Assembly: GCA_002724675.1 (NCBI GenBank)
Contig: PBPL01000101.1
Coordinates: 8-64,007 of the forward strand
Reading direction: 5' to 3'
DNA length: 64,000 nucleotides
Origin: Deltaproteobacteria bacterium
Lineage (GTDB): Bacteria; Myxococcota_A; UBA796; UBA9615
Below are positions 38,247 to 53,498 of the stretch, one piece after another. Each line of letters starts with the position of its first letter. Within the stretch, counting starts at the first letter, position 1. Position numbers and translations under genes: made by a program. A model generated the notes under the pieces. The model was not told the DNA's origin. It saw nothing but the letters and a program-made list of their open reading frames with translations, and searched no databases.

Positions 38247-38732
38247 TTATTGAGGCTGTAGCCTCGCCTCGGTGCCGGATCCGGTGGAACCGAACCCGCC
38301 TTCTCCGCGCTCGGTAGCGTCGAGGATCTCGACCTGTTCTACCGACACCTGAGCCACCCGGGCCACCACCAACTGAGCAATGCGCATGCCTCGCTCGATG
38401 ACAAAAGGCTCAGACCCCAGGTTGGCAAGAAGCACCTTCACCTCACCCCGATAGTCCGAGTCGATGGTTCCAGGTGCATTGATGATCGTCACGCCGTGTC
38501 GGAGCGCCAGACCGGACCGAGGGCGGACCTGAATCTCGGTGCCCGGAGGCACCGCCATGGACAGGCCCGTTGGCACCGCGAGGCGGTCTCCTGGGTGAAG
38601 CGTGATGGGTTCAGTGACCGCTGCGCGGACATCGAGTCCCGCCGCCTGAGCGCTCATGGCCTCAGGCAGCGGGACGTCGTTGTCAGCTTCCGGTCGGAGC
38701 CGGCAAACACGTAGGGGTATGACCGGCTCCAC
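38247..38732 (-). CDS. dut: dUTP diphosphatase
   Basis: [33 protein letters not shown] motifs. Confidence 0.93.
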
Positions 38733-38739
38733 GCTCGCC

Positions 38740-40881
38740 TCAGTGCGCGGCGTGCGCGGCTTCTTCGCCGAGCGTCTCGCCGAGGGCAGCCTTGCGGGAC
38801 AGCCGGATCTTGCCCGACTTGTCGACGTCGATGCACTTCACGAGTACCTCGTCGCCCTCCTGCAGGATGTCAGTCACCTTGTTGACCCGTGCCTCAGCCA
38901 GCTCGCTGATGTGCACAAGGCCATCGGTGTTGGCGAAGATCTCCACAAAGGCGCCGAAGTCCACGACCTTCTTCACGATGCCCAGGTAGAGCTTGCCCAC
39001 CTCGGCTTCCTGCGTCAGCTCACGGATCATACGGATAGCCGCCTCACAGGCCGCCGAGTCCGGCGACGAGATCGTGACCACGCCGACCCCAGAGGAGTCG
39101 TCCACGTTTACCTGAGCGCCCGTGGCCTCCACGATGCCCTTGATCGTCTTGCCACCGGGGCCAATGACGTCCCGGACACGGCTCTGGGCAATCTCCAGCT
39201 GGTGAATGCGGGGCGCGAAGGGGCTCAGGTCATCCCGTGCCTCTCCCAGCACCGTATTCATGCAACCGAGGATGTGCTCTCGTCCCTCACGCGCCTGGCT
39301 GAGCGCCTTGCGCATGATCTCCGAGCTCACGCCCTTGATCTTGGTGTCCATCTGGAAGGCGGTGACACCCGCGCGGGTGCCCGTGACCTTAAAGTCCATG
39401 TCGCCCAAGTGGTCCTCATCGCCCGAGATGTCGGACAGGACGGCGTATCGCTCGCCTTCCTTGATGAGACCCATGGCGATACCGGCAACCGGTGCTTTCG
39501 TGGGGACACCAGCGTCCATCATGGCGAGGGACGCACCGCACACCGAGGCCATCGACGAACTGCCGTTGCTCTCGGTGATGTCGGAGACGACACGCACCAC
39601 GTAGGGGTAGTCCTTCTGAGGGACGACCGGGTGCACCGCGCGTCGCGCGAGAGCGCCATGGCCGATTTCCCGGCGACCGGGACCCATCATGCGACGAGTC
39701 TCTCCCACCGAATAGGCGGGGAAGTTGTAGTGCAGCATGAAGCGATTCCAGCCCTGCTCATCGAGTTCATCGATGCGCTGCTCGTCCATGCGTGTACCGA
39801 GCGTGCAGGTCACCAGCGCTTGCGTCTCACCCCGGGTGAACAGGGCCGAGCCGTGGGTTCGCGGCAGCACACCGACCTCCACGTTGATGTTTCGCACCTG
39901 GTCCGGGACACGACCATCCAATCGGACACCCTCGTCCAGGAGACGTCCACGCATCAGCTGCTTGACCAGCTTTCCGTGAATCTCACCCAGCTGCTTGCGG
40001 CGACCCGCCTTCTCGTCGTCACTGGCGTCATCGGCCGCAGCGAACTTCTCTCGAATCGCCTCCTTCACGGCCTTGAGCGCATCCTTGCGGTCGTGCTTGC
40101 CTTCCACCTGGAAGGCGTCGACGATCGCCGAGCTGAACTCCGCGCGGACTTCGTCGACGAGCGACGAGATGTCCTCCTCCTCCGTCACGGTCATCTTGGC
40201 CTTACCGACCGCTGCCACCAACTCCTTCTGGAGCTCAATGATGGGCTGCGCGGCCTGGAAGCCAAACTCGAGACCGGCGACGATGTCTTCTTCGCTGGCC
40301 TCTTCCATTCCGCCCTCGACCATCGTGATGGCCTCGCTGCTGGCGGCAATGATCATGTCGAAGTCACTGTCCTCGAGCTGCGTCAGCGTGGGGTTGGCTA
40401 CCCACTCGCCATTGATGCGACCAACTCGGATGCCCGCGATGGGACCGTCGAACGGAATGTCCGAAATGCAGGTCGCAGCCGAGGCGCCGGTCAGCGCCAG
40501 GACATCGGTGGGGTTCTCCTGGTCGTGCGACACGACATAGGCGAGAACCTGAATCTCAGCACGCCACGTCTTTGGAAACAGCGGCCGGATGGGACGGTCC
40601 ATCATGCGGGCAACGAGAATGCTCTTCGGCCCGGGACGACCCTCACGCTTGAAGTAACCACCTGGGATGCGACCAGCGGCAGCCGCCATGGGTCGGTAAT
40701 CACAGGTCAAGGGCAGGAAGTCAGTGCCAGGACGGCCCTCACTCGCACCCGTTGCCGCGACCAGCACGACGGAATCGCCATACCGGACCAGCACCGAACC
40801 GCCCGCCTGCTTGGCGACGCGTCCGGTCTCAATGGATAGTTGTTTTCCGTTGATCTCAACGGACTTAATTGTAGTTGCCAT
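38740..40881 (-). CDS. pnp: Polyribonucleotide nucleotidyltransferase (PNPase)
   Basis: Two RNase PH domains followed by KH ([11 protein letters not shown]) and S1 ([15 protein letters not shown]) domains. ATG 40879-40881 ([20 protein letters not shown]) matches the canonical PNPase N-terminus. The listed ORF starts 60 nt upstream. Confidence 0.93.
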
Positions 40882-41077
40882 CTTGGCAGTCTCTTTCGTC
40901 GCGGTCAGCAGCCCCTGGGCGAAACCCCTTGGTTCCGCCATCCACGTTTCCGTGGGACTGCCGTCTTCGTAGGCTCCCGAGGCACCCGCGCTGACCGCGT
41001 GGGCAGGGGTGGACGTTCCCCGGGAGATGCCAGCGCTCTCCTTCCCCGTTCCGGGGGAGCGCGCTGAACCAATGGAA

Positions 41078-46296: not shown

Positions 46297-47649
46297 CTAG
46301 AGCTTGTGGATCCGACCGGCAGGAGAGTCAACTCCAGCCAGAGCATTACGACAGTCGACAATCGCCACTGATTTCCGCGCGACCAACTCCCAGTCGATGG
46401 CAGCATGATCCGCGGTCACCACGACACAATCAAAGGAGGAGAGCATCTCTTCGCCCAGCGACTCCGAAGCCAGCAACTCCCCCGAGACAAGCTCCAAGTG
46501 TGGCACATGTGGATCGTGGTACCGGATCTCAGCTCCCCGAGCGATCAGTAACTGAATGACATCGAGCGCCGGGCTCTCCCGAGTGTCGGACACGTTGGCC
46601 TTGTAGCTCACACCTAGGATGAGCACTCGACTGCCACGCACCGACTTGGAGTCCTCGTTCAGGCTCTCAGAGACCAACTCCACCACATGAGCCGGCATCG
46701 AGGTGTTGACCTCGGCGGCCAACTCGATGAACCGTGCGCGATAGTTGAGTGTCTTGAGGATCCAGGAAAGATAGTGCGGATCCACAGGGATGCAGTGCCC
46801 ACCCAGACCGGGGCCTGGATAAAACTTCATGAAGCCAAACGGCTTGGTGGCGGCGGCATCGATCACCTCCCAGGTGTCCAGGCCCAGCTTGCGACACATG
46901 AGCGCGACCTCGTTGACCAGCCCAATGTTCACCGCTCGAAAGGTGTTCTCCAGTAGCTTGGCCATCTCCGCTGCTCGGGTAGACGACATGGGGACAACCG
47001 TCGTCAAGAAGGTGTTGTACAGCGCGCAACCCACGGCAGTGCACGAATCGGTGATGCCGCCAACGAGACGCGGTGTGTTGCGGATATCGAACGAGAGGTT
47101 CCCCGGATCGACGCGCTCCGGGGAGAAGCAGAGGAAGAAGTCCTCACCGACCACCAAGCCCTTCTCTTCGAAGACGGGCAAGAGAAGCTCGTCGGTGCTC
47201 CCAGGGTAGGTGGTCGACTCCAGGACAATGAGTTGCCCAGGTCGAAGCCGCTCAGCCACTTCGCGGGCAGCCGTCAGAATGAACGAGATGTCCGGATCCC
47301 GCGTCTTGGATAGCGGAGTCGGCACGCAGATAGAGATCGCGTCCATCTCGGACAAATCATCGAAGCTCGCCCGGGGATGGAATCGACCCGACTGAAGGCA
47401 CTCCTGCAGGACCTTGTCGCTTACGTCGTCAATGTAGGACTTTCCCGCTAATAGACTGTCAATCTTTCGCTGATCAATGTCGTAGCCGGTCACATCGAGA
47501 CCAGCAGAGACCATGGTCATCGCCAGAGGAAGACCCACATAGCCCTGCCCGATGACACCCACTCGAGCCCCACCAGACTGAATGAGCCCAATCAACGCTG
47601 CGCTGGCATCCGTAGCTTGGTCGAGCGGCGTTGATTGATCAGTTCTCAT
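46297..47649 (-). CDS. Nucleotide-sugar dehydrogenase (UDP-GlcNAc/UDP-ManNAc 6-dehydrogenase-like)
   Basis: Rossmann motif VGVIGQGYVGLPLA, ICVPTP, and the catalytic region GLGGHCIPVDP. ATGA overlap with the upstream gene's stop. Confidence 0.85.
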   Translation of the reverse strand: MRTDQSTPLDQATDASAALIGLIQSGGARVGVIGQGYVGLPLAMTMVSAGLDVTGYDIDQRKIDSLLAGKSYIDDVSDKVLQECLQSGRFHPRASFDDLSEMDAISICVPTPLSKTRDPDISFILTAAREVAERLRPGQLIVLESTTYPGSTDELLLPVFEEKGLVVGEDFFLCFSPERVDPGNLSFDIRNTPRLVGGITDSCTAVGCALYNTFLTTVVPMSSTRAAEMAKLLENTFRAVNIGLVNEVALMCRKLGLDTWEVIDAAATKPFGFMKFYPGPGLGGHCIPVDPHYLSWILKTLNYRARFIELAAEVNTSMPAHVVELVSESLNEDSKSVRGSRVLILGVSYKANVSDTRESPALDVIQLLIARGAEIRYHDPHVPHLELVSGELLASESLGEEMLSSFDCVVVTADHAAIDWELVARKSVAIVDCRNALAGVDSPAGRIHKL

Positions 47650-49526
47650 CGGTGCTTGGCGGGTCCCACACAGGAGCGACGCATCCTACCCGGATTCCGT
47701 CCGCGCGACACCAGCCCGAGCAGTGCCCACGCCATCAGCAGAGCCACCGGCCCGTGTCCGCGAGCAGAACCACCCAACGACAGGAGCGAGGCCCCACAGT
47801 CCAAGCTGGGAGTCTCGTCCAGACGAAGAGGGTCGGAATAGCCCAGGTATTCCTCTAGGTTCGAGACGCCATCTCCATCGGCATCGAGCGCCCCATCGGC
47901 TCTCTGCGGATTCAATCCCCAGGCAAGCTCCCACACGTCATCCATGCCGTCCGCGTCCCCATCCGGAGGCAGATAGATCAGGCCCAACTCCACCCGTTCT
48001 TCAGTTCCCACCGAGACGACATCAGCGCTCCGCAGCGACCGTGCCTCTGGCCAGTAGGTTGTGACGCGGCTGGGATCGCCGGTGCAAAATGGTAGCCACT
48101 CAACCTGGACCAGGTAGGCGCCAGTATCGAGGCCCTGGACCACAAAAGCGCCATCCCCATCCGTTCGACCACCAGCGACCTCCATCTCGTCAGAGGCGTC
48201 GAATACTGTAATTGCGGCTCCACGAACCGCGGTGCCTGTTCGAGTCCGCACCGACCCCACCAACTGGCCTCCTTCCAGCATGGAGATGTCCAGCTGGCGT
48301 GTCTCACCAGCAACCAATCGGATGGGTTCGGCTGTGCGAAATGGAAGCAGTGGCGACGTACCGGCCAACTGGACCTCCACAGACACCGCACCCGCGGGCA
48401 AGTGCTCCAGACGAGCGGGTGTACTGGAGGTCTCCGGTCCCACCGACCGCGCCAGTAGGCGCTCCCCTCCCCCTCCATCGCTCGCCTGCCGCACAACCAA
48501 TTGCGCCCCGTAGCCCGCCTGCTCCTCCAGCCCACTGACACGAACCTCCAAGACCGCGGCCTCGGCGAGGACGAGGTCAGGAACCGTTGTCACCTCGCCC
48601 GCTTCGAGAAGCAGCCAATCAGCTTCGGCTTGAGTGTCCACTCCAGGAGACCACGTCCTTGAAAACCCCTCCGCTTCCACTCGCAACTGAAACTCAGAGC
48701 CGGGAACGGCGTCGAAGTAAAACCGACCGGTCGAATCGGTTGTAGAGGGCGGAACTGACGCGTTCCGCATCGACAAGAAAACCTCAGCCCCCGGGACAGG
48801 TCTATCTTCCTCGAGGACCCGACCCGCCACCGTGGCTCCTGCAGGCACCACGAGGTCAGCGCGTCGGTCCTCTCCACGCACAGCGTGAATGAACTCCGCC
48901 CCCTCAGGATTCCAGGTCCCCGGGAACCAGACCGACCCCGCCATGGGCACCTCGCCCAGCGGCGCCAGGGAGACTCTCAGCTCGTAGAGCCCCGGGAGGA
49001 TCTCCTCGTCCTCCACGAACGAATCCAGACCCGTGATGCGGTACTGACCTTCATCATCGGTCCAGGATTCTCGAATCAGCCCCTGGTGGAAATAGCCCAC
49101 CCCAGTGGCCGTGACCCTCTGGCCAGCGAGAGGGGCTCCATTGGAGTCCACAACCGTGCCCCACAACGACCCCCCTACAGGCAACAGGAAGTCGATGCCA
49201 GACAAGGTCTGATCGCTCTCTAAGCGCAAGATCTCTGCATTGCAGAAGAGATAGCGATCATCGTAGTAGGCACCCAGCCGATTGAGGGCATCCGGCGGCA
49301 AGGCCCAGGCCCGGTGCAGGCCTGGGTCGACTCCTTCGATGCGGTAGAACCCGCGCTCGTCCGTCGTGGACAGGGCCGCTTGGCCCTTGAGGTCCATGGC
49401 ATAGACCTGGACGCCCTCCAGCGGCTCCCCACCAGGGTATCCGGCGACCTCCCCCTCCAGAACGGCAGCGGCCGCGGCCCCCCCGTAGAGGAGGACCGCG
49501 GCCGCGAGAATGCCTATTGGGCGAAT
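47646..49526 (-). CDS. Secreted protein: repeated carboxypeptidase-regulatory-like (CarboxypepD_reg) domains, a TSP3-like Asp-rich Ca-binding repeat, and a C-terminal Cys + hydrophobic + Arg-rich sorting-like tail
   Basis: Repeated G.V.D..G.P..GA.V... TD..G.Y.I.GL patterns, and DGDADGMDDVWE...DADGDGVSNLEEY. The first canonical start is ATG 49397, but the in-frame sequence upstream encodes a signal peptide and the start of the first domain. I therefore extend the call to ATT 49524-49526 (see findings). Confidence 0.6.
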   Translation of the reverse strand: MRPIGILAAAVLLYGGAAAAAVLEGEVAGYPGGEPLEGVQVYAMDLKGQAALSTTDERGFYRIEGVDPGLHRAWALPPDALNRLGAYYDDRYLFCNAEILRLESDQTLSGIDFLLPVGGSLWGTVVDSNGAPLAGQRVTATGVGYFHQGLIRESWTDDEGQYRITGLDSFVEDEEILPGLYELRVSLAPLGEVPMAGSVWFPGTWNPEGAEFIHAVRGEDRRADLVVPAGATVAGRVLEEDRPVPGAEVFLSMRNASVPPSTTDSTGRFYFDAVPGSEFQLRVEAEGFSRTWSPGVDTQAEADWLLLEAGEVTTVPDLVLAEAAVLEVRVSGLEEQAGYGAQLVVRQASDGGGGERLLARSVGPETSSTPARLEHLPAGAVSVEVQLAGTSPLLPFRTAEPIRLVAGETRQLDISMLEGGQLVGSVRTRTGTAVRGAAITVFDASDEMEVAGGRTDGDGAFVVQGLDTGAYLVQVEWLPFCTGDPSRVTTYWPEARSLRSADVVSVGTEERVELGLIYLPPDGDADGMDDVWELAWGLNPQRADGALDADGDGVSNLEEYLGYSDPLRLDETPSLDCGASLLSLGGSARGHGPVALLMAWALLGLVSRGRNPGRMRRSCVGPAKHR

Positions 49527-49529
49527 GGC

Positions 49530-50462
49530 TTACTCGAAGCCAATCAGCCAGATCGCCTGTCCACCGTACTGCCCAGACAGGTCCGTGCCCACGTAGGGGT
49601 TGGTCTCGGTGTTCTTGAAGAACTCCCAGTATCCGTACCACGAAGAGCCGGGGCCCGCCGCAGCCGAGACCTGGTTGATACCAATCTCGTTGGACAGCGT
49701 TCCAGGGGTGTTGTTCACGAAACCAGCGTGGGTGAACTCAAGCCCGTACTCAGACAGGGTCTGCTCGATCTCGGCAGCGCTGTAGCCACCGTCCACCGTC
49801 AGCTCCATGCCCTGATCGCTCATCGTGGTGACATCCACCAAGCCGAGGCTGAGGAAGTCGCCCATGCCACCATCGGTGATGGGAGTCAGCAGCGAGGGGC
49901 CGAAGTTGGCGCCGGCGAGGTCCAGCTCGGCGACATCGCAGTCGTCCGGGTTGGTCGCAGGATCGGAGATGTCGGTGGCCGACGTGTGATCGAACTCAAT
50001 GGAGCCCGTGCAGTTGTTGCAGCCTTCACCAGCCAGGATGCCGGGGCCGAAGGTGGCAGAGCCAGCGATCTGAATCCACTGCGTGCAGTTCAGGATCTGG
50101 GTTGCCTCGTTGTACTCAGCCCAGTAGTTGACACCGAACACGGCAGAGATGTCGGTAGAGGAGTCGTCCACGGGGACCGCTTCCATCTCGATGGAGAAGC
50201 TGATGGCAGCCAGCGCGAACTCAGCCGCGGTGTCGTCATCATCATCGTCGTCATCATCATCGTCGTCGCCGAGGTTGTTACCACCGTCGTCGTCGTCGTC
50301 ACCAGGAATGTTGTTGCCGTCGTTGTCAGTGTCACCGTCGATGGACGAGTCGCCACCATTGGCACCATCTGTGCGGGCATCACAGCCCATTCCAACCAAC
50401 GCAACACCCACAACCAGCGCCAACATATAGCTACTGAACATCTTCACGATAACCTTGAACAT
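49530..50462 (-). CDS. Asp-rich lipoprotein, function unknown
   Basis: ATG 50460-50462 preceded by GGAGGGAG. Lipobox LVGMGC. D/N/G-rich region including D5 and D12 runs. The remainder has no recognisable motif. Confidence 0.65.
   Translation of the reverse strand: MFKVIVKMFSSYMLALVVGVALVGMGCDARTDGANGGDSSIDGDTDNDGNNIPGDDDDDGGNNLGDDDDDDDDDDDDTAAEFALAAISFSIEMEAVPVDDSSTDISAVFGVNYWAEYNEATQILNCTQWIQIAGSATFGPGILAGEGCNNCTGSIEFDHTSATDISDPATNPDDCDVAELDLAGANFGPSLLTPITDGGMGDFLSLGLVDVTTMSDQGMELTVDGGYSAAEIEQTLSEYGLEFTHAGFVNNTPGTLSNEIGINQVSAAAGPGSSWYGYWEFFKNTETNPYVGTDLSGQYGGQAIWLIGFE
50232..50300 (-). repeat. GAY (Asp) codon tract encoding GDDDDDGGNNLGDDDDDDDDDDDD
   Basis: The plus strand reads GTCGTCATCATCATCGTCGTCATCATCATCGTCGTC..., a low-complexity trinucleotide tract inside the lipoprotein CDS. 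Confidence 0.9.
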
Positions 50463-50704
50463 TCGGGTCTCCCTCCACCTCGCATATACCGACCAGACCG
50501 GTTGCAGACACCCTGCAACACGAACCATCCAGCCCAGCTGAGTGCGAGCGGCGAGCGGTATGTACCCGAGAGCCGCGCGAAAGAAAAGTCCTTTTTCGAA
50601 CAAGCCCTACGCGAAACGGCAACAGGCATCGAAATCGGAAAAAACAAGAAGAGACGCAACTTCAAGACAAGGTCGACGCTGTAACCGATAGCGGCAACCG
50701 CAGC

Positions 50705-51991
50705 TCAGTCAACGCGAACCTGCCTGGGAGGCTCCTTCGACGCCGAGACCGCTCTGACCCGAGCCGTATCCAGCTGACCTCGACCAAACTCCGAGTCGAT
50801 CTCGCGTGCCAGCGAGAGCACGAAGCGAAGAGTTTGCTCGAGAGCGCGGGGCTCTACCGAGTCCAATCGGTCCTGGTGCGTGTGTAAGACCTCCGCAGCC
50901 CTGCCACGAACCAACGTAGTGAGCGTCACCGCCCGGTAGCCGGCCTCCGTCACCGGACCCGCATCGGTTCGCCCCACAAGGGCGACCTCGCCGACCCCAT
51001 CGAACTCATCGGACTGAGCGAGACGCTCCGCCAGAGCAGGCAGGCTTGGTCTATATGGCAAGCGGTCCCAACGCCCTTCTGAGCTGACGAAGTGCAGCTC
51101 CCCACGGCCGACGTCGTCTAGGTTGACGAAGAAGGTCGCGCGCCGGTCCAGAAGATGAGCGAACTGGCGCACGAACGCCTTCATGCCGCCCGAGTCCGCT
51201 TCACGCGCGCCGGTCGCGAGGACCCACAGCTCGCAGTGCTCCAGTGGTTCATTCACCAGATGCTCCGCGGCCACTAGAGCCACCGCGAGGCCAGAGCCGT
51301 TGTCGATGGCCCCAGCGGTGGGGACAGAGCGCCACCAATCGATGGCAATGAGAAGCGTGGCGACGTGGATCCAGGCCGCCATCAGCAGCGCCGCAAGCGC
51401 GACGGGAGAGGGTTCAGGAAGCGCCAACGCCAAGATGGAGGCGACAAGTTGAGTAGCACCACCGACGAGTACAATGGTGCCAGGGTGCAGGGGCACACCA
51501 CCGATTAATTCATAGTGAGCCAGTCGCTTGACCCAGGGACTGAAGAGCGTGGACGCACCGGCCACGTCCGCATGCGCCACGAGCACCACCCGACCCCGAC
51601 TGCCCGGCTGCCGAAGGCGCGCGACCATATTGCCCGTCAGCTGCTTCATGAGAAGCCAGCGCACCAGACGCGGGCGGCCGCGAAGCTCACCCCAAAAGGA
51701 CAGCAAGACCAACGAAGTCAGCAACACAGGCCCCAACCCGTTGCTCAGAAGGGACCAGAGCAGGGCCACGAGCAGAAGGGCCGAGTGTGTCCCCAGCAGG
51801 ACAGAGGTCTGAGGAGCGCACACCGCCCCCTCAACGACCGTGTCCATGCCCAGCCGGTCTAGACGCCCGGCAAGCGCAGCCTGGGCCATGCGCTCACCTT
51901 GAGAACCCGCCAGTCGACCAGGCAACTCGGTGACAACCCCGATGAATTCCTTCATGCGTTGGACCGTCGATGTTTGATGCGAGTGTGACAT
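50705..51991 (-). CDS. M28-family metallopeptidase-like membrane protein
   Basis: RVVLVAHADV... and GAIDNGSGLAVALVAAEHL...WVLATGAREADSGGMKAF resemble M28 metal-ligand blocks. Several hydrophobic helices lie N-terminal to and between these blocks. Confidence 0.5.
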   Translation of the reverse strand: MSHSHQTSTVQRMKEFIGVVTELPGRLAGSQGERMAQAALAGRLDRLGMDTVVEGAVCAPQTSVLLGTHSALLLVALLWSLLSNGLGPVLLTSLVLLSFWGELRGRPRLVRWLLMKQLTGNMVARLRQPGSRGRVVLVAHADVAGASTLFSPWVKRLAHYELIGGVPLHPGTIVLVGGATQLVASILALALPEPSPVALAALLMAAWIHVATLLIAIDWWRSVPTAGAIDNGSGLAVALVAAEHLVNEPLEHCELWVLATGAREADSGGMKAFVRQFAHLLDRRATFFVNLDDVGRGELHFVSSEGRWDRLPYRPSLPALAERLAQSDEFDGVGEVALVGRTDAGPVTEAGYRAVTLTTLVRGRAAEVLHTHQDRLDSVEPRALEQTLRFVLSLAREIDSEFGRGQLDTARVRAVSASKEPPRQVRVD

Positions 51992-52073
51992 TGTCGAGAA
52001 GAGTCTAAACCGTTCGCTATACTCTCAAACCCCAGGGGTCGGTCTTCGGCCCATTACCTCGGTTAGGACCTCG

Positions 52074-53498
52074 ATGAACCTCGTTGTCGACGAGGTTGTT
52101 TCGCTGCACAGCGACAACCTCTCTCATGTATTCCATGTACCCACATCATCGCTGTATGCGATGGACTCCGAAACCATGTCTATCCTCGAGGGTGCTCGTG
52201 ATGGACTGCATACCGATCAGAGCCTGCAGAAACTGACGGCGGACTCAGGTCTCGACCCGGCCGAGGTCGAGGACATCATCGACAATTTGGTGAAGTTGCG
52301 TCTCCTGGTCCCACCAGGCGAGACCGGCAACCGAGGCCCACTTGCTGACCGGCCGCAGAGTGGCCGGAGCATGGGCAATCTCGTCCTCCACGTGGCACAC
52401 ACCTGCAATCTGGGTTGCGGCTACTGCTATGCGGAGCAAGGCCTGTACAAGGGCAAAGCCACCCTCATGAACGAAGAGCGAGCCCATGAATATGTGGACT
52501 GGCTATTCGACCAGTGTGATCCGGAGACCAAGTCTCTCGGCATCACTTTCTTCGGGGGCGAGCCACTGCTGAATCTGAAAGTCATGAAGTCCGCCGCAGC
52601 CCATGCTCGAGAACGAGCGGACACGGACAACAAGTCTGTGCGGTTCTCCGTGACGACCAACGGCACCCTAGTCACCCCCGAGATCGTCGACTTTCTAGCC
52701 GCCATCGACTGTGTCGTCACAGTGAGTCTGGACGGCATCGGCAAGACCAACGATCGCCTGCGCCCGTTCCACTCGGGCCGCGGGTCCTACGACCTCGTCC
52801 TGGACCGCATCCAACCGCTCCTCGAACGGGGCAAGGTGGCTGCCCGTGTCACCGTCACCCGGCAGAACCTCGATGTCGTAGACACCGTCACGACGCTCCT
52901 CGAACGAGGCTTCGCTGAGGTGGGGTGCTCGCCAGTCGATGCGAAGAATCCTGCCTACGACCTGCGAGGGGAAGACTACGAAGTGCTGCTCGATGGCTTC
53001 GGCACACTCTCCCGACGCTACATCGACGAGGCCGTGCAGGGTCGTAAGTACGGCTTCTCTAACATCGCCAACATCATCAAGGCGGTGCACCAAGGGCACA
53101 ACAAGGACTACCCGTGCGGCGCGGGGCTCCAGATGGTTGCGGGTGCCCCCAACGGTGAGATGAGCCTATGCCACCGATTCGTTGGTGAGCCGGACTACGT
53201 CCTTGGCAACGTCAAAGAGGGTGGAATCGATAGCCATCGTCGGCTTCAGATCCTCGAGGACATCCAGCTGTCCGAGCGATCCGACTGCTCCAGTTGCTGG
53301 GCCCGTTACATCTGCTCCGGCGGATGCCACCACGTCAACTTCCTGTTCGAGGGAGACCCCAGCCGCACTTACCTGACCCACTGTGACTACCTCCGAGCTT
53401 GGTATCGCATGGGCCTCGAAGCCTACGCTGAGATCATGTCACGCAACCCCGAGTTCGTCGGGGAGTTCATCGACCCCGGTTTTCTGTGCAATCAGTAA
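52074..53498 (+). CDS. qhpD: Radical SAM / SPASM-domain peptide-modifying enzyme (QhpD-like thioether-forming maturase)
   Basis: CX3CX2C at C111/C115/C118 (CNLGCGYC, nt 52404-52427). Full 7-Cys SPASM motif: C348-x12-G-x4-C366 ... C405-x2-C408-x5-C414-x3-C418 ... C437 (nt 53115-53384). About 100 aa N-terminal to the core could be a peptide-binding (RRE-like) region. Sits immediately upstream of a QhpC-like peptide gene. Confidence 0.8.
   Translation: MNLVVDEVVSLHSDNLSHVFHVPTSSLYAMDSETMSILEGARDGLHTDQSLQKLTADSGLDPAEVEDIIDNLVKLRLLVPPGETGNRGPLADRPQSGRSMGNLVLHVAHTCNLGCGYCYAEQGLYKGKATLMNEERAHEYVDWLFDQCDPETKSLGITFFGGEPLLNLKVMKSAAAHARERADTDNKSVRFSVTTNGTLVTPEIVDFLAAIDCVVTVSLDGIGKTNDRLRPFHSGRGSYDLVLDRIQPLLERGKVAARVTVTRQNLDVVDTVTTLLERGFAEVGCSPVDAKNPAYDLRGEDYEVLLDGFGTLSRRYIDEAVQGRKYGFSNIANIIKAVHQGHNKDYPCGAGLQMVAGAPNGEMSLCHRFVGEPDYVLGNVKEGGIDSHRRLQILEDIQLSERSDCSSCWARYICSGGCHHVNFLFEGDPSRTYLTHCDYLRAWYRMGLEAYAEIMSRNPEFVGEFIDPGFLCNQ

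Follow-up and report, generated by a model that had tools for sequence, protein, structure and literature searches.

A candidate AUU start codon for a CarboxypepD_reg gene, three nucleotides after the stop codon of a lipoprotein-like gene in an uncultured marine deltaproteobacterium

Naturally fixed non-canonical start codons are, to our knowledge, very rare in bacteria, and in Escherichia coli only those of infC and pcnB have been confirmed. These two genes, which encode initiation factor 3 (IF3) and poly(A) polymerase respectively, have coding regions whose only possible initiator is AUU, a codon that gives about 1-2% of AUG in reporters (bioRxiv 10.1101/063800). Another group of described systems is that of translationally coupled genes, among which the experimentally coupled pairs galT/galK and rplK/rplA have a stop-start spacing of +3 nucleotides (nt), with scanning ribosomes using the start nearest to the stop; documented coupling reinitiates on AUG, GUG or UUG, and the review of these systems describes no case in which AUU is the only natural start (PMC12548453). 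Here we describe a pair of genes in a 64,000 nt stretch (the window) of contig PBPL01000101.1, from a metagenome-assembled genome (MAG) of a marine 'Deltaproteobacteria bacterium', in which a lipoprotein-like gene is directly followed by a gene for a CarboxypepD_reg protein that has no canonical start codon before its signal peptide, and which may begin at an AUU codon located just after the stop of its upstream neighbour.

The locus resembles infC and pcnB in having a coding region for which AUU would be the only possible initiator, in the conservation of that AUU in related species, and in the low and tunable expression to be expected from it (bioRxiv 10.1101/063800). It differs from them in its context, since infC and pcnB have their own ribosome-binding sites and encode cytoplasmic regulators, the AUU of infC providing IF3 autoregulation, whereas the candidate AUU described here has no Shine-Dalgarno (SD) sequence, lies +3 nt after a stop codon, precedes a signal peptide and is followed by a strong hairpin. 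With galT/galK and rplK/rplA it shares the co-directional arrangement and the +3 nt spacing, as well as a downstream gene without an SD and an upstream gene that is presumably well translated, a strong SD (GGAGGGAG, 50476-50469) being found 6 nt before its ATG. As in coupled overlaps of the ATGA or TAATG type, the two genes overlap or are separated by short gaps in relatives of the pair, and the next junction of the operon is an ATGA.

All coordinates refer to the window, and both genes are on its minus strand. The comparison covers two species: species A, represented by the window and the loci L083, L084 and L085, and its sister, species B (L001 to L003; 66% protein identity). The elements of the junction are the following.

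49530 to 50462, minus strand: upstream lipoprotein-like gene, 310 amino acids (aa), with ATG at 50462-50460 and stop TAA at 49532-49530
49530 to 49532, minus strand: TAA stop of the upstream gene, in frame with the downstream open reading frame (ORF), next base G (UAAG)
49524 to 49526, minus strand: ATT1, the proposed initiation codon (AUU), +3 nt from the TAA, conserved in both species
49509 to 49511, minus strand: ATT2, an alternative near-cognate start, conserved in both species
49395 to 49397, minus strand: ATG of the public annotation (MBN94191.1, 583 aa), internal to domain 1
47646 to 49526, minus strand: proposed full coding sequence, 626 codons from the ATT, with stop TGA at 47648-47646
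49464 to 49526, minus strand: predicted Sec-type signal peptide (M)RPIGILAAAVLLYGGAAAAA, with probable cleavage between AAA and VLEGEV, from the homologue alignment
49398 to 49463, minus strand: start of the mature protein, VLEGEVAGYPGGEPLEGVQVYA, comprising strand A and most of strand B of the first CarboxypepD_reg beta-sandwich

The upstream ORF ends in ...IWLIGFE followed by TAA, and the frame continues past this stop as GCC ATT CGC CCA ATA GGC ATT CTC GCG..., which translates to AIRPIGILAAAVLLYGGAAAAAVLEGEVAGYPGGEPLEGVQVYA up to the ATG at 49397-49395, where the public annotation (MBN94191.1, locus CL928_08970) starts. None of the 44 in-frame sense codons between the TAA and this ATG is ATG, GTG or TTG. 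Canonical start triplets are absent from all frames between -11 and +100 around the TAA in the window, and between -32 and +88 in the sister species; of all gaps between such triplets in the window, 0.8% reach 110 nt or more. From codon frequencies, the chance of finding 44 codons without a canonical start is roughly 5%, which is mildly improbable by itself, and the feature counts as real because the 44 codons are demonstrably coding and not because of the missing start codon alone. Inspection of the sequence before ATT1 revealed no SD, and the nearest SD-like motif of the annotated start, a GGAGGG approximately 16-17 nt upstream of ATG 49397, would be too far away for normal spacing. In homologues, the position of ATG 49397 is occupied by R, M or V. 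A small predicted stem-loop (GGCUU-CGAGU-AAGCC, 49527 to 49541, minus strand) encloses the UAA, with the AUU next to it and partly paired in minimum free energy folds; its sequence is identical in both species, hence allows no covariation test, and is weak evidence.

A sequence-only reading of this stretch had already noted that the upstream ORF ends in LIGFE-TAA, that its frame runs on to ATG 49397 through 44 codons free of ATG, GTG and TTG, and that no strong SD is present, and all of these sequence statements hold. The start candidates that it proposed fared differently. The ATT at 49526-49524 is conserved, while the ATA at 49517-49515, which is ACA in the sister species, and the CTG at 49460-49458, which is located after the conserved signal peptide, were both rejected. 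Its list did not include the conserved ATT2 at 49511-49509.

Sequence comparison and structural modelling agree that the 44-codon extension is real coding sequence of the downstream gene. A protein search yielded two close relatives, P0001 (99%; an NCBI/MetaClust protein lacking a gene record) and P0002 (66%), and in both the called sequence begins at this internal ATG. The more distant homologues P0003, P0005 and P0006 (32-38% identity) begin with MDRLxxLxxLLLL...A.A followed by TVxGEVxGFPDGxPLxGVQV, and their N-termini align residue for residue with the extension in the window. When the extension is included, the Pfam CarboxypepD_reg profile is matched from position 2 to 50 (25.6 bits); from ATG 49397 onwards the match shrinks to positions 28-50 (12.9 bits), positions 2-27 being covered solely by virtue of the extension. 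The AlphaFold2 model (7-sequence alignment, mean predicted local distance difference test (pLDDT) score of 67) places a helix at residues 3-15 and strands at residues 22-31 and 41-46, all within the extension, in a block with a pLDDT of 75-83. The pattern of substitution is that of purifying selection: between the two species, codons 340-355 of the extension have a synonymous divergence (dS) of 2.05 and a ratio of non-synonymous to synonymous divergence (dN/dS) of 0.09, and the downstream gene as a whole, compared with that of L001 over 581 aligned codons, has a dN/dS of 0.15 at a dS of ~1.8 (1.79). No stops, frameshifts or indels are found in the downstream gene of either species.

The predicted signal peptide has, by eye, an n-region (M)R-PIG, an h-region ILAAAVLLYGG and a cleavage site between AAA and V, which is aligned with the ends of the homologue signal peptides (AYA/G, AAA/E, SAA/E and AQA/A); the mature N-terminus predicted after cleavage is VLEGEVAGYPGGEPLEGVQVYAMDLK. 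The suggestion of the sequence-only reading that a signal peptide and the opening CarboxypepD_reg strands lie upstream of the ATG thus agrees with the homologue alignment, the Pfam coordinates, AlphaFold2 and purifying selection. Because these elements lie upstream of it, a start at ATG 49397 would truncate the protein within its first domain, as that reading had also proposed and as the shortened Pfam match bears out. The protein starts at a non-canonical codon within 49529-49398, or else is made via readthrough.

The junction is conserved. The sequence TAA GCC ATT, without any canonical start before the signal peptide, is present in 7/7 independent assemblies from the two species, and HCP48253.1, a partial NCBI protein derived from a further assembly, likewise starts with AVLLYGGAAAAAVLEGEV. 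The three codons following ATT1 differ non-synonymously between the species (RPI to SRT), with the frame and exactly one Arg kept, which on this comparison is the behaviour expected of a signal-peptide n-region. Counted from ATT1, the n-region has one Arg (MRPIG or MSRTG), like those of the homologues (MDRL, MEHRL and MKPG).

Comparison of orthologous loci, the check recommended by the sequence-only reading, revealed separate genes with their own GTG or TTG starts in relatives, and two species without a canonical start. The lipoprotein-like gene is found directly upstream of the CarboxypepD_reg gene in L001, L004-L008, L010, L086 and L088-L090, and GTG or TTG precedes the signal peptide in all 10 distinct syntenic relatives (L004-L008, L010, L086 and L088-L090). 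A scan of GTDB genomes returned relatives of at most 41% identity, which serve as outgroups and not as clade members. The canonical starts of the relatives form an overlap of 16-20 nt with the end of the upstream gene (L010, L008 and L007) or are found 9-55 nt past its stop, in frames 1,1,1,1,2,2,2,2 and 0 relative to that stop. Thus, 9/10 distinct relatives are out of frame with the upstream gene, and only L004 is in frame (one third would be expected by chance). Since the frames differ and the genes are separate, fusion is not a family trait. In L086, the start TTG-AAG-CCA-GGT-CTC (M-K-P-G-L) aligns with ATT-CGC-CCA-ATA-GGC-ATT-CTC ((M)-R-P-I-G-I-L), and the ATT at 49526-49524 therefore holds the homologous start position. 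The lipoprotein C-terminus ends 0-3 residues from a conserved [IV]W.[IV].F motif in all homologues. On the basis of these alignments, the ATT arrangement is derived from a GTG- or TTG-starting state. A scan of metagenome contigs with the motifs VNYWAEY and [SP]WYGYWE gave no confirmed relative, and one with DDDDDDD was swamped by poly-Asp, so that the ATT clade, as covered here, numbers two species.

A second striking feature of the junction is a predicted RNA structure inside the signal-peptide codons.

49468 to 49505, minus strand: RNA hairpin GCGGCCGCGGUCCUCCU-CUAC-GGGGGGGCCGCGGCCGC, 17 base pairs including 2 G.U pairs, approximately -38 kcal/mol (predicted)

This hairpin begins 18 nt after the ATT at 49526-49524 and 24 nt after the TAA. 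It represents the most stable 44-nt fold in the 64-kb window when both strands are scanned (-39.5, versus a mean of -11.1 and a standard deviation of 3.9), as well as the longest spaced inverted repeat in the window (I7); the antisense-strand fold is weaker (-30.4), as two of the pairs are G.U. Only two differences separate it from its counterpart in the sister species, both C to U and both keeping the pairing as G.U. Over codons 317-339 the protein is 100% identical between the species, and dS is 0.16 versus 1.8-2.05 in the adjacent downstream coding sequence, which amounts to a synonymous divergence ~10-fold below that of the flanking downstream region. Codons for identical amino acids differ in 3/23 cases in the hairpin region, versus 50-59% in the downstream gene (P=7e-6 to 2e-4). 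Conservation in secreted proteins is normally lowest in the signal peptide, and because it is the signal-peptide codons that show depleted change here, RNA-level selection on the hairpin appears likely from these substitution rates. With two nearly identical sequences, a covariation test of the hairpin is impossible. Relatives with canonical starts have no strong hairpin at the same position, the strongest being that of L006 (-34.6 kcal/mol), ~30 nt further downstream; the appearance of the hairpin therefore coincides with the loss of the canonical start, as one event.

Other explanations for the structure were considered and rejected. The possibility that it is a by-product of self-complementary GCG/GCC Ala runs is at odds with the extension of the stem through UCCUCCU/GGGGGGG, the strand asymmetry, the top rank in 64 kb and the 10-fold drop in dS. 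Of an intrinsic (Rho-independent) terminator the stem is present but not the U-tract, the stem being followed by UGCCGUUCUGG; a terminator scan of 47000-52500 returned 0 terminator-like sites, and the terminator and promoter scan gave nothing near the junction. Rfam 15 contains no matching family, the sole match being Atu_C4 with 19.3 bits against a gathering score of 80 (E=0.34). At window position 49495, L083 has GGC in place of GTC (Val to Gly) in the 5' arm of the hairpin, which turns a U·G pair into a G·G mismatch and is either a population variant or an assembly error. The window contains a second hairpin (38634-38677, minus strand, -35.5 kcal/mol). It is flanked by the ORF at 38740-40941 and by one that ends at 38247, and follows a polynucleotide-phosphorylase-like gene at a distance of ~60 nt from the stop. 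The ATG (38657-38655) of a dUTPase-like ORF lies in its loop and no U-tract follows, and this second hairpin may be a terminator, a stabiliser, or a structure presenting or controlling the dut start.

With moderate confidence, and from sequence comparison only, we favour initiation at the AUU at 49526-49524 by termination-reinitiation after the upstream gene. Of the options offered by the sequence-only reading, that of a rare AUU start combined with coupling is best supported, as the codon is conserved, lies at +3 nt, is aligned with the TTG of L086 and has no SD. The upstream gene, with its strong SD, would be well translated; ribosomes terminating at the UAA would remain bound to the mRNA and use fMet-tRNA to reinitiate at the neighbouring near-cognate AUU, a step that would need no SD. 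Nothing would compete with the AUU, as all frames are free of canonical start triplets for ~100 nt. The hairpin may keep the post-termination ribosome within a stretch of ~15 nt that includes the AUU and block initiation further downstream, and/or may form or stabilise the 3' end of the upstream cistron, further lowering downstream expression. The resulting multi-domain CarboxypepD_reg protein would be exported via Sec and produced in a low and fixed proportion to its lipoprotein-like partner. The codon that is used, the reinitiation mechanism and the role of the hairpin are all parts of a model that we infer.

Several observations weigh against this model. AUU initiates poorly and IF3 discriminates against it, and we know of little documentation of bacterial reinitiation at non-canonical codons. 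ATT2 is as conserved as ATT1, whose own conservation covers just 6 nt beside a conserved stop, comes from two species that represent one evolutionary event, and could reflect an Ile codon or shared ancestry; the start codon is one that we infer only. The low dS at the hairpin becomes marginal when it is compared with the rate of the lipoprotein gene (30%; P=0.054). The hairpin starts at +22 from the AUU, ~6 nt beyond the expected leading edge of the ribosome, so that its fit to a wall in front of the ribosome is approximate. Finally, the second most stable hairpin of the window (38634-38677) follows the pnp stop, also without a U-tract, which suggests that such hairpins have a generic role in forming or stabilising 3' ends that has nothing to do with start selection.

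The start of the protein could be accounted for in other ways. Initiation at another non-canonical codon, mainly ATT2 at 49511-49509 or several near-cognates, is in our opinion unlikely. ATT2 is conserved in both species and has an AGG just upstream (AAUAGGC-AUU / AACAGGC-AUU), although at 1 nt this has the wrong SD spacing, and the three codons that separate ATT1 from the GGC preceding ATT2, each of them changed non-synonymously, would fit a non-coding spacer too. However, the frame and the Arg are kept between ATT1 and ATT2, the TTG start of L086 aligns with ATT1, and a signal peptide beginning MLAAAVLLYGG... would, unlike those of all homologues, lack a positively charged n-region; moreover, the -38 kcal/mol hairpin begins 3 nt after ATT2 (+7), inside the initiation complex, and should be inhibitory. 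A true start at ATG 49397, with the 44 codons as a relic and the product truncated and non-exported or the gene a pseudogene, is very improbable. This ATG is the only canonical start and was chosen by gene callers in both species, but it has no properly spaced SD, cuts domain 1 at profile position ~23-28 of 82 and removes two strands. A relic would have had to stay free of stops and indels at a dN/dS of 0.09 over a dS of ~2, with its signal peptide 100% conserved; the C-terminal sorting-type tail of Cys, transmembrane segment and Arg is sensible only for an exported protein, and the whole-gene dN/dS of 0.15 excludes a pseudogene. Programmed readthrough of the UAA would yield a fusion of the lipoprotein and the CarboxypepD_reg protein, in which the hydrophobic stretch is internal and not a signal peptide. 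In both species the ORFs share a frame, and the stop is followed by a very stable hairpin, yet this option of the sequence-only reading is disfavoured and we give it very little credence: the 10 distinct relatives have separate genes with their own GTG or TTG starts, 9 of them in a different frame, and the natural C-terminus of the lipoprotein, 0-3 residues past the [IV]W.[IV].F motif, is conserved. The stretch aligns with genuine N-terminal signal peptides, and as an internal transmembrane segment it would leave the beta-sandwich domains on the cytoplasmic side, the reverse of their location in the homologues. In E. coli, translation terminates efficiently at UAA followed by G, and known stimulators of readthrough act at ~8 nt from the stop, whereas the only strong structure here is 24 nt away. 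A sequencing or assembly error hiding a canonical start or a frameshift, also raised by the sequence-only reading together with mutation, has a negligible probability. Beyond the oddity itself, nothing speaks for it except that the region is GC-rich with a G7 run, while the junction is shared by four assemblies of species A and three of species B, AVLLYGGAAAAAVLEGEV recurs in HCP48253.1, and dN/dS is 0.15. A change in the genetic code was rejected, as TAA, TAG and TGA all end long ORFs (4, 8 and 27, respectively, among 39 in the window), and so was -1 frameshifting or hopping, since the ORFs are already in frame and inspection found no slippery heptamer before the hairpin.

The role of the hairpin can be weighed apart from the choice of start codon. 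In eukaryotes, scanning 40S subunits are stalled over a weak or non-AUG start when a hairpin lies ~14 nt downstream of it (PMC2001202). Our locus resembles this effect described by Kozak in that a near-cognate start is followed at a short, fixed distance (18 nt) by a stable hairpin, and in invoking a scanning, non-translocating ribosome, which could slide only ~6 nt past the AUU before meeting the hairpin. The resemblance is an analogy only, as the Kozak effect belongs to eukaryotic cap-dependent scanning and is not established for bacterial 30S or 70S ribosomes, and the distance here is slightly above the optimum. That the hairpin acts as a wall focusing reinitiation on the AUU, a prokaryotic counterpart of the Kozak effect in a gene expressed exclusively by reinitiation, is accordingly a conjecture that we consider doubtful. 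A different role for the hairpin, compatible with an AUU start and independent of start selection, is that of an intercistronic attenuator, or of a block to 3' exonucleases that gives the lipoprotein mRNA a stable 3' end, and which would set a high ratio of upstream to downstream expression; we regard this as a serious possibility, if a little short of probable. Intercistronic stem-loops stabilise upstream mRNA segments in the puf operon of Rhodobacter and in the malE-malF repetitive extragenic palindromic (REP) element of E. coli. Like these, ours is a GC-rich hairpin without a U-tract, shortly past the stop of a presumably abundant upstream cistron, but it is embedded in downstream signal-peptide codons, whereas the puf and malE-malF elements are in non-coding spacers. 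Its place 24 nt after the stop is typical of a terminator or stabiliser, the hairpin after pnp suggests a generic role of this kind, and the dS of 0.70 in the lipoprotein gene versus 1.79 in the downstream gene is consistent with higher upstream expression. On the other hand, attenuation is difficult to reconcile with the missing U-tract and the 0 terminator-like sites in 47000-52500, and the downstream genes of the operon (the ATGA-coupled UDP-glucose dehydrogenase and others) need read-through transcription; relatives with canonical starts, moreover, have no strong hairpin at the same position.

The products of the two genes differ in how readily they can be classified. The upstream protein has an N-terminus MFKVIVKMFSSYMLALVVGVALVGMG-C, a poly-Asp linker and a conserved C-terminal domain. 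The label 'lipoprotein', applied in the sequence-only reading, is retained here on the sole basis of the N-terminal pattern ...LALVVGVALVGMG-C, as a search of Pfam and NCBIfam gave no family match. Compared with the sister species, the gene has a dN/dS of 0.11 and a dS of 0.70, so that synonymous divergence is 2.5-fold apart in the two adjacent genes (0.70 and 1.79), and the lower value suggests, as far as substitution rates can tell, strong codon-level constraint (high expression) or a more recent exchange. At about 50200-50300, 12 consecutive Asp codons form part of a longer acidic Asn/Gly-rich linker (GDDDDDGGNNLGDDDDDDDDDDDDTAAE), which connects the lipobox to the conserved C-terminal domain and varies in length between the two species.

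The downstream protein consists of the signal peptide, four CarboxypepD_reg-type beta-sandwich domains, Asp-rich thrombospondin-type-3-like repeats and a tail with a Cys, a hydrophobic segment and many Arg. It matches PF13620 with E=2e-39 and 134 bits (cut-off 32.3) in 4 stretches. The C-terminal region (47649-47830) contains DxDxDG repeats of the thrombospondin-type-3-like kind, with weak NCBIfam matches to MtsD and Amuc_1099. In the alignment, an invariant Cys578 is followed by a hydrophobic stretch and an R-rich tail; the resemblance to MYXO-CTERM is one of appearance only, as no MYXO-CTERM-type sorting domain was matched in NCBIfam at E<=0.1.

The TGA of the downstream gene overlaps the next ATG as ATGA (47646-47649), a classical -4 coupling, and the ORF that begins there (46297-47649) belongs to the UDP-glucose/GDP-mannose dehydrogenase family. 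The shared operon neighbourhood includes an M28 peptidase gene upstream, and UDP-glucose dehydrogenase and an LPG-synthase-TM protein downstream. At 50705-53498 of the window and in L001 and L086 the neighbourhood is conserved, with the M28 peptidase upstream on the same strand and divergent genes for a radical-SAM/SPASM enzyme, a 98-aa QH-AmDH-gamma-like peptide and a beta-propeller protein. These divergent genes look like a peptide-modification cassette, of the ribosomally synthesized and post-translationally modified peptide (RiPP) or quinohemoprotein kind, beside a cell-surface operon. Paralogues of the lipoprotein-like gene (49-51% identity) that are not followed by a CarboxypepD_reg gene occur in L087 (ENA ERZ1305922) and L091 (NCBI DQDA01000403.1), where their neighbours encode an ABC-F ATPase, a pentapeptide-repeat protein and an acyltransferase; the MAG project that yielded L091 (DIU15) also contains fragments matching the window at 100% identity.

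In public annotation, both MBN94191.1 and the JGI/ENA calls made for the sister species, the protein most likely begins 43 residues late. The deposited sequence consequently lacks the export signal and part of domain 1, and predictions of localisation and structure made from it are wrong; gene callers limited to ATG, GTG and TTG silently truncate such genes in MAGs. Both AUU starts and termination-reinitiation coupling are known, and what the comparison of the two species offers is a new and comparatively well-supported natural example from an uncultured marine lineage, in which the conserved embedded hairpin is the only element that might point to a new mechanism. The locus offers a clean natural setting in which to ask whether AUU can serve post-termination ribosomes for reinitiation, with the adjacent hairpin as a specific and mutable element. 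If the hairpin does act as a wall, expression of the exported protein would be hard-wired at a low stoichiometry to its upstream partner, and possibly sensitive to IF3.

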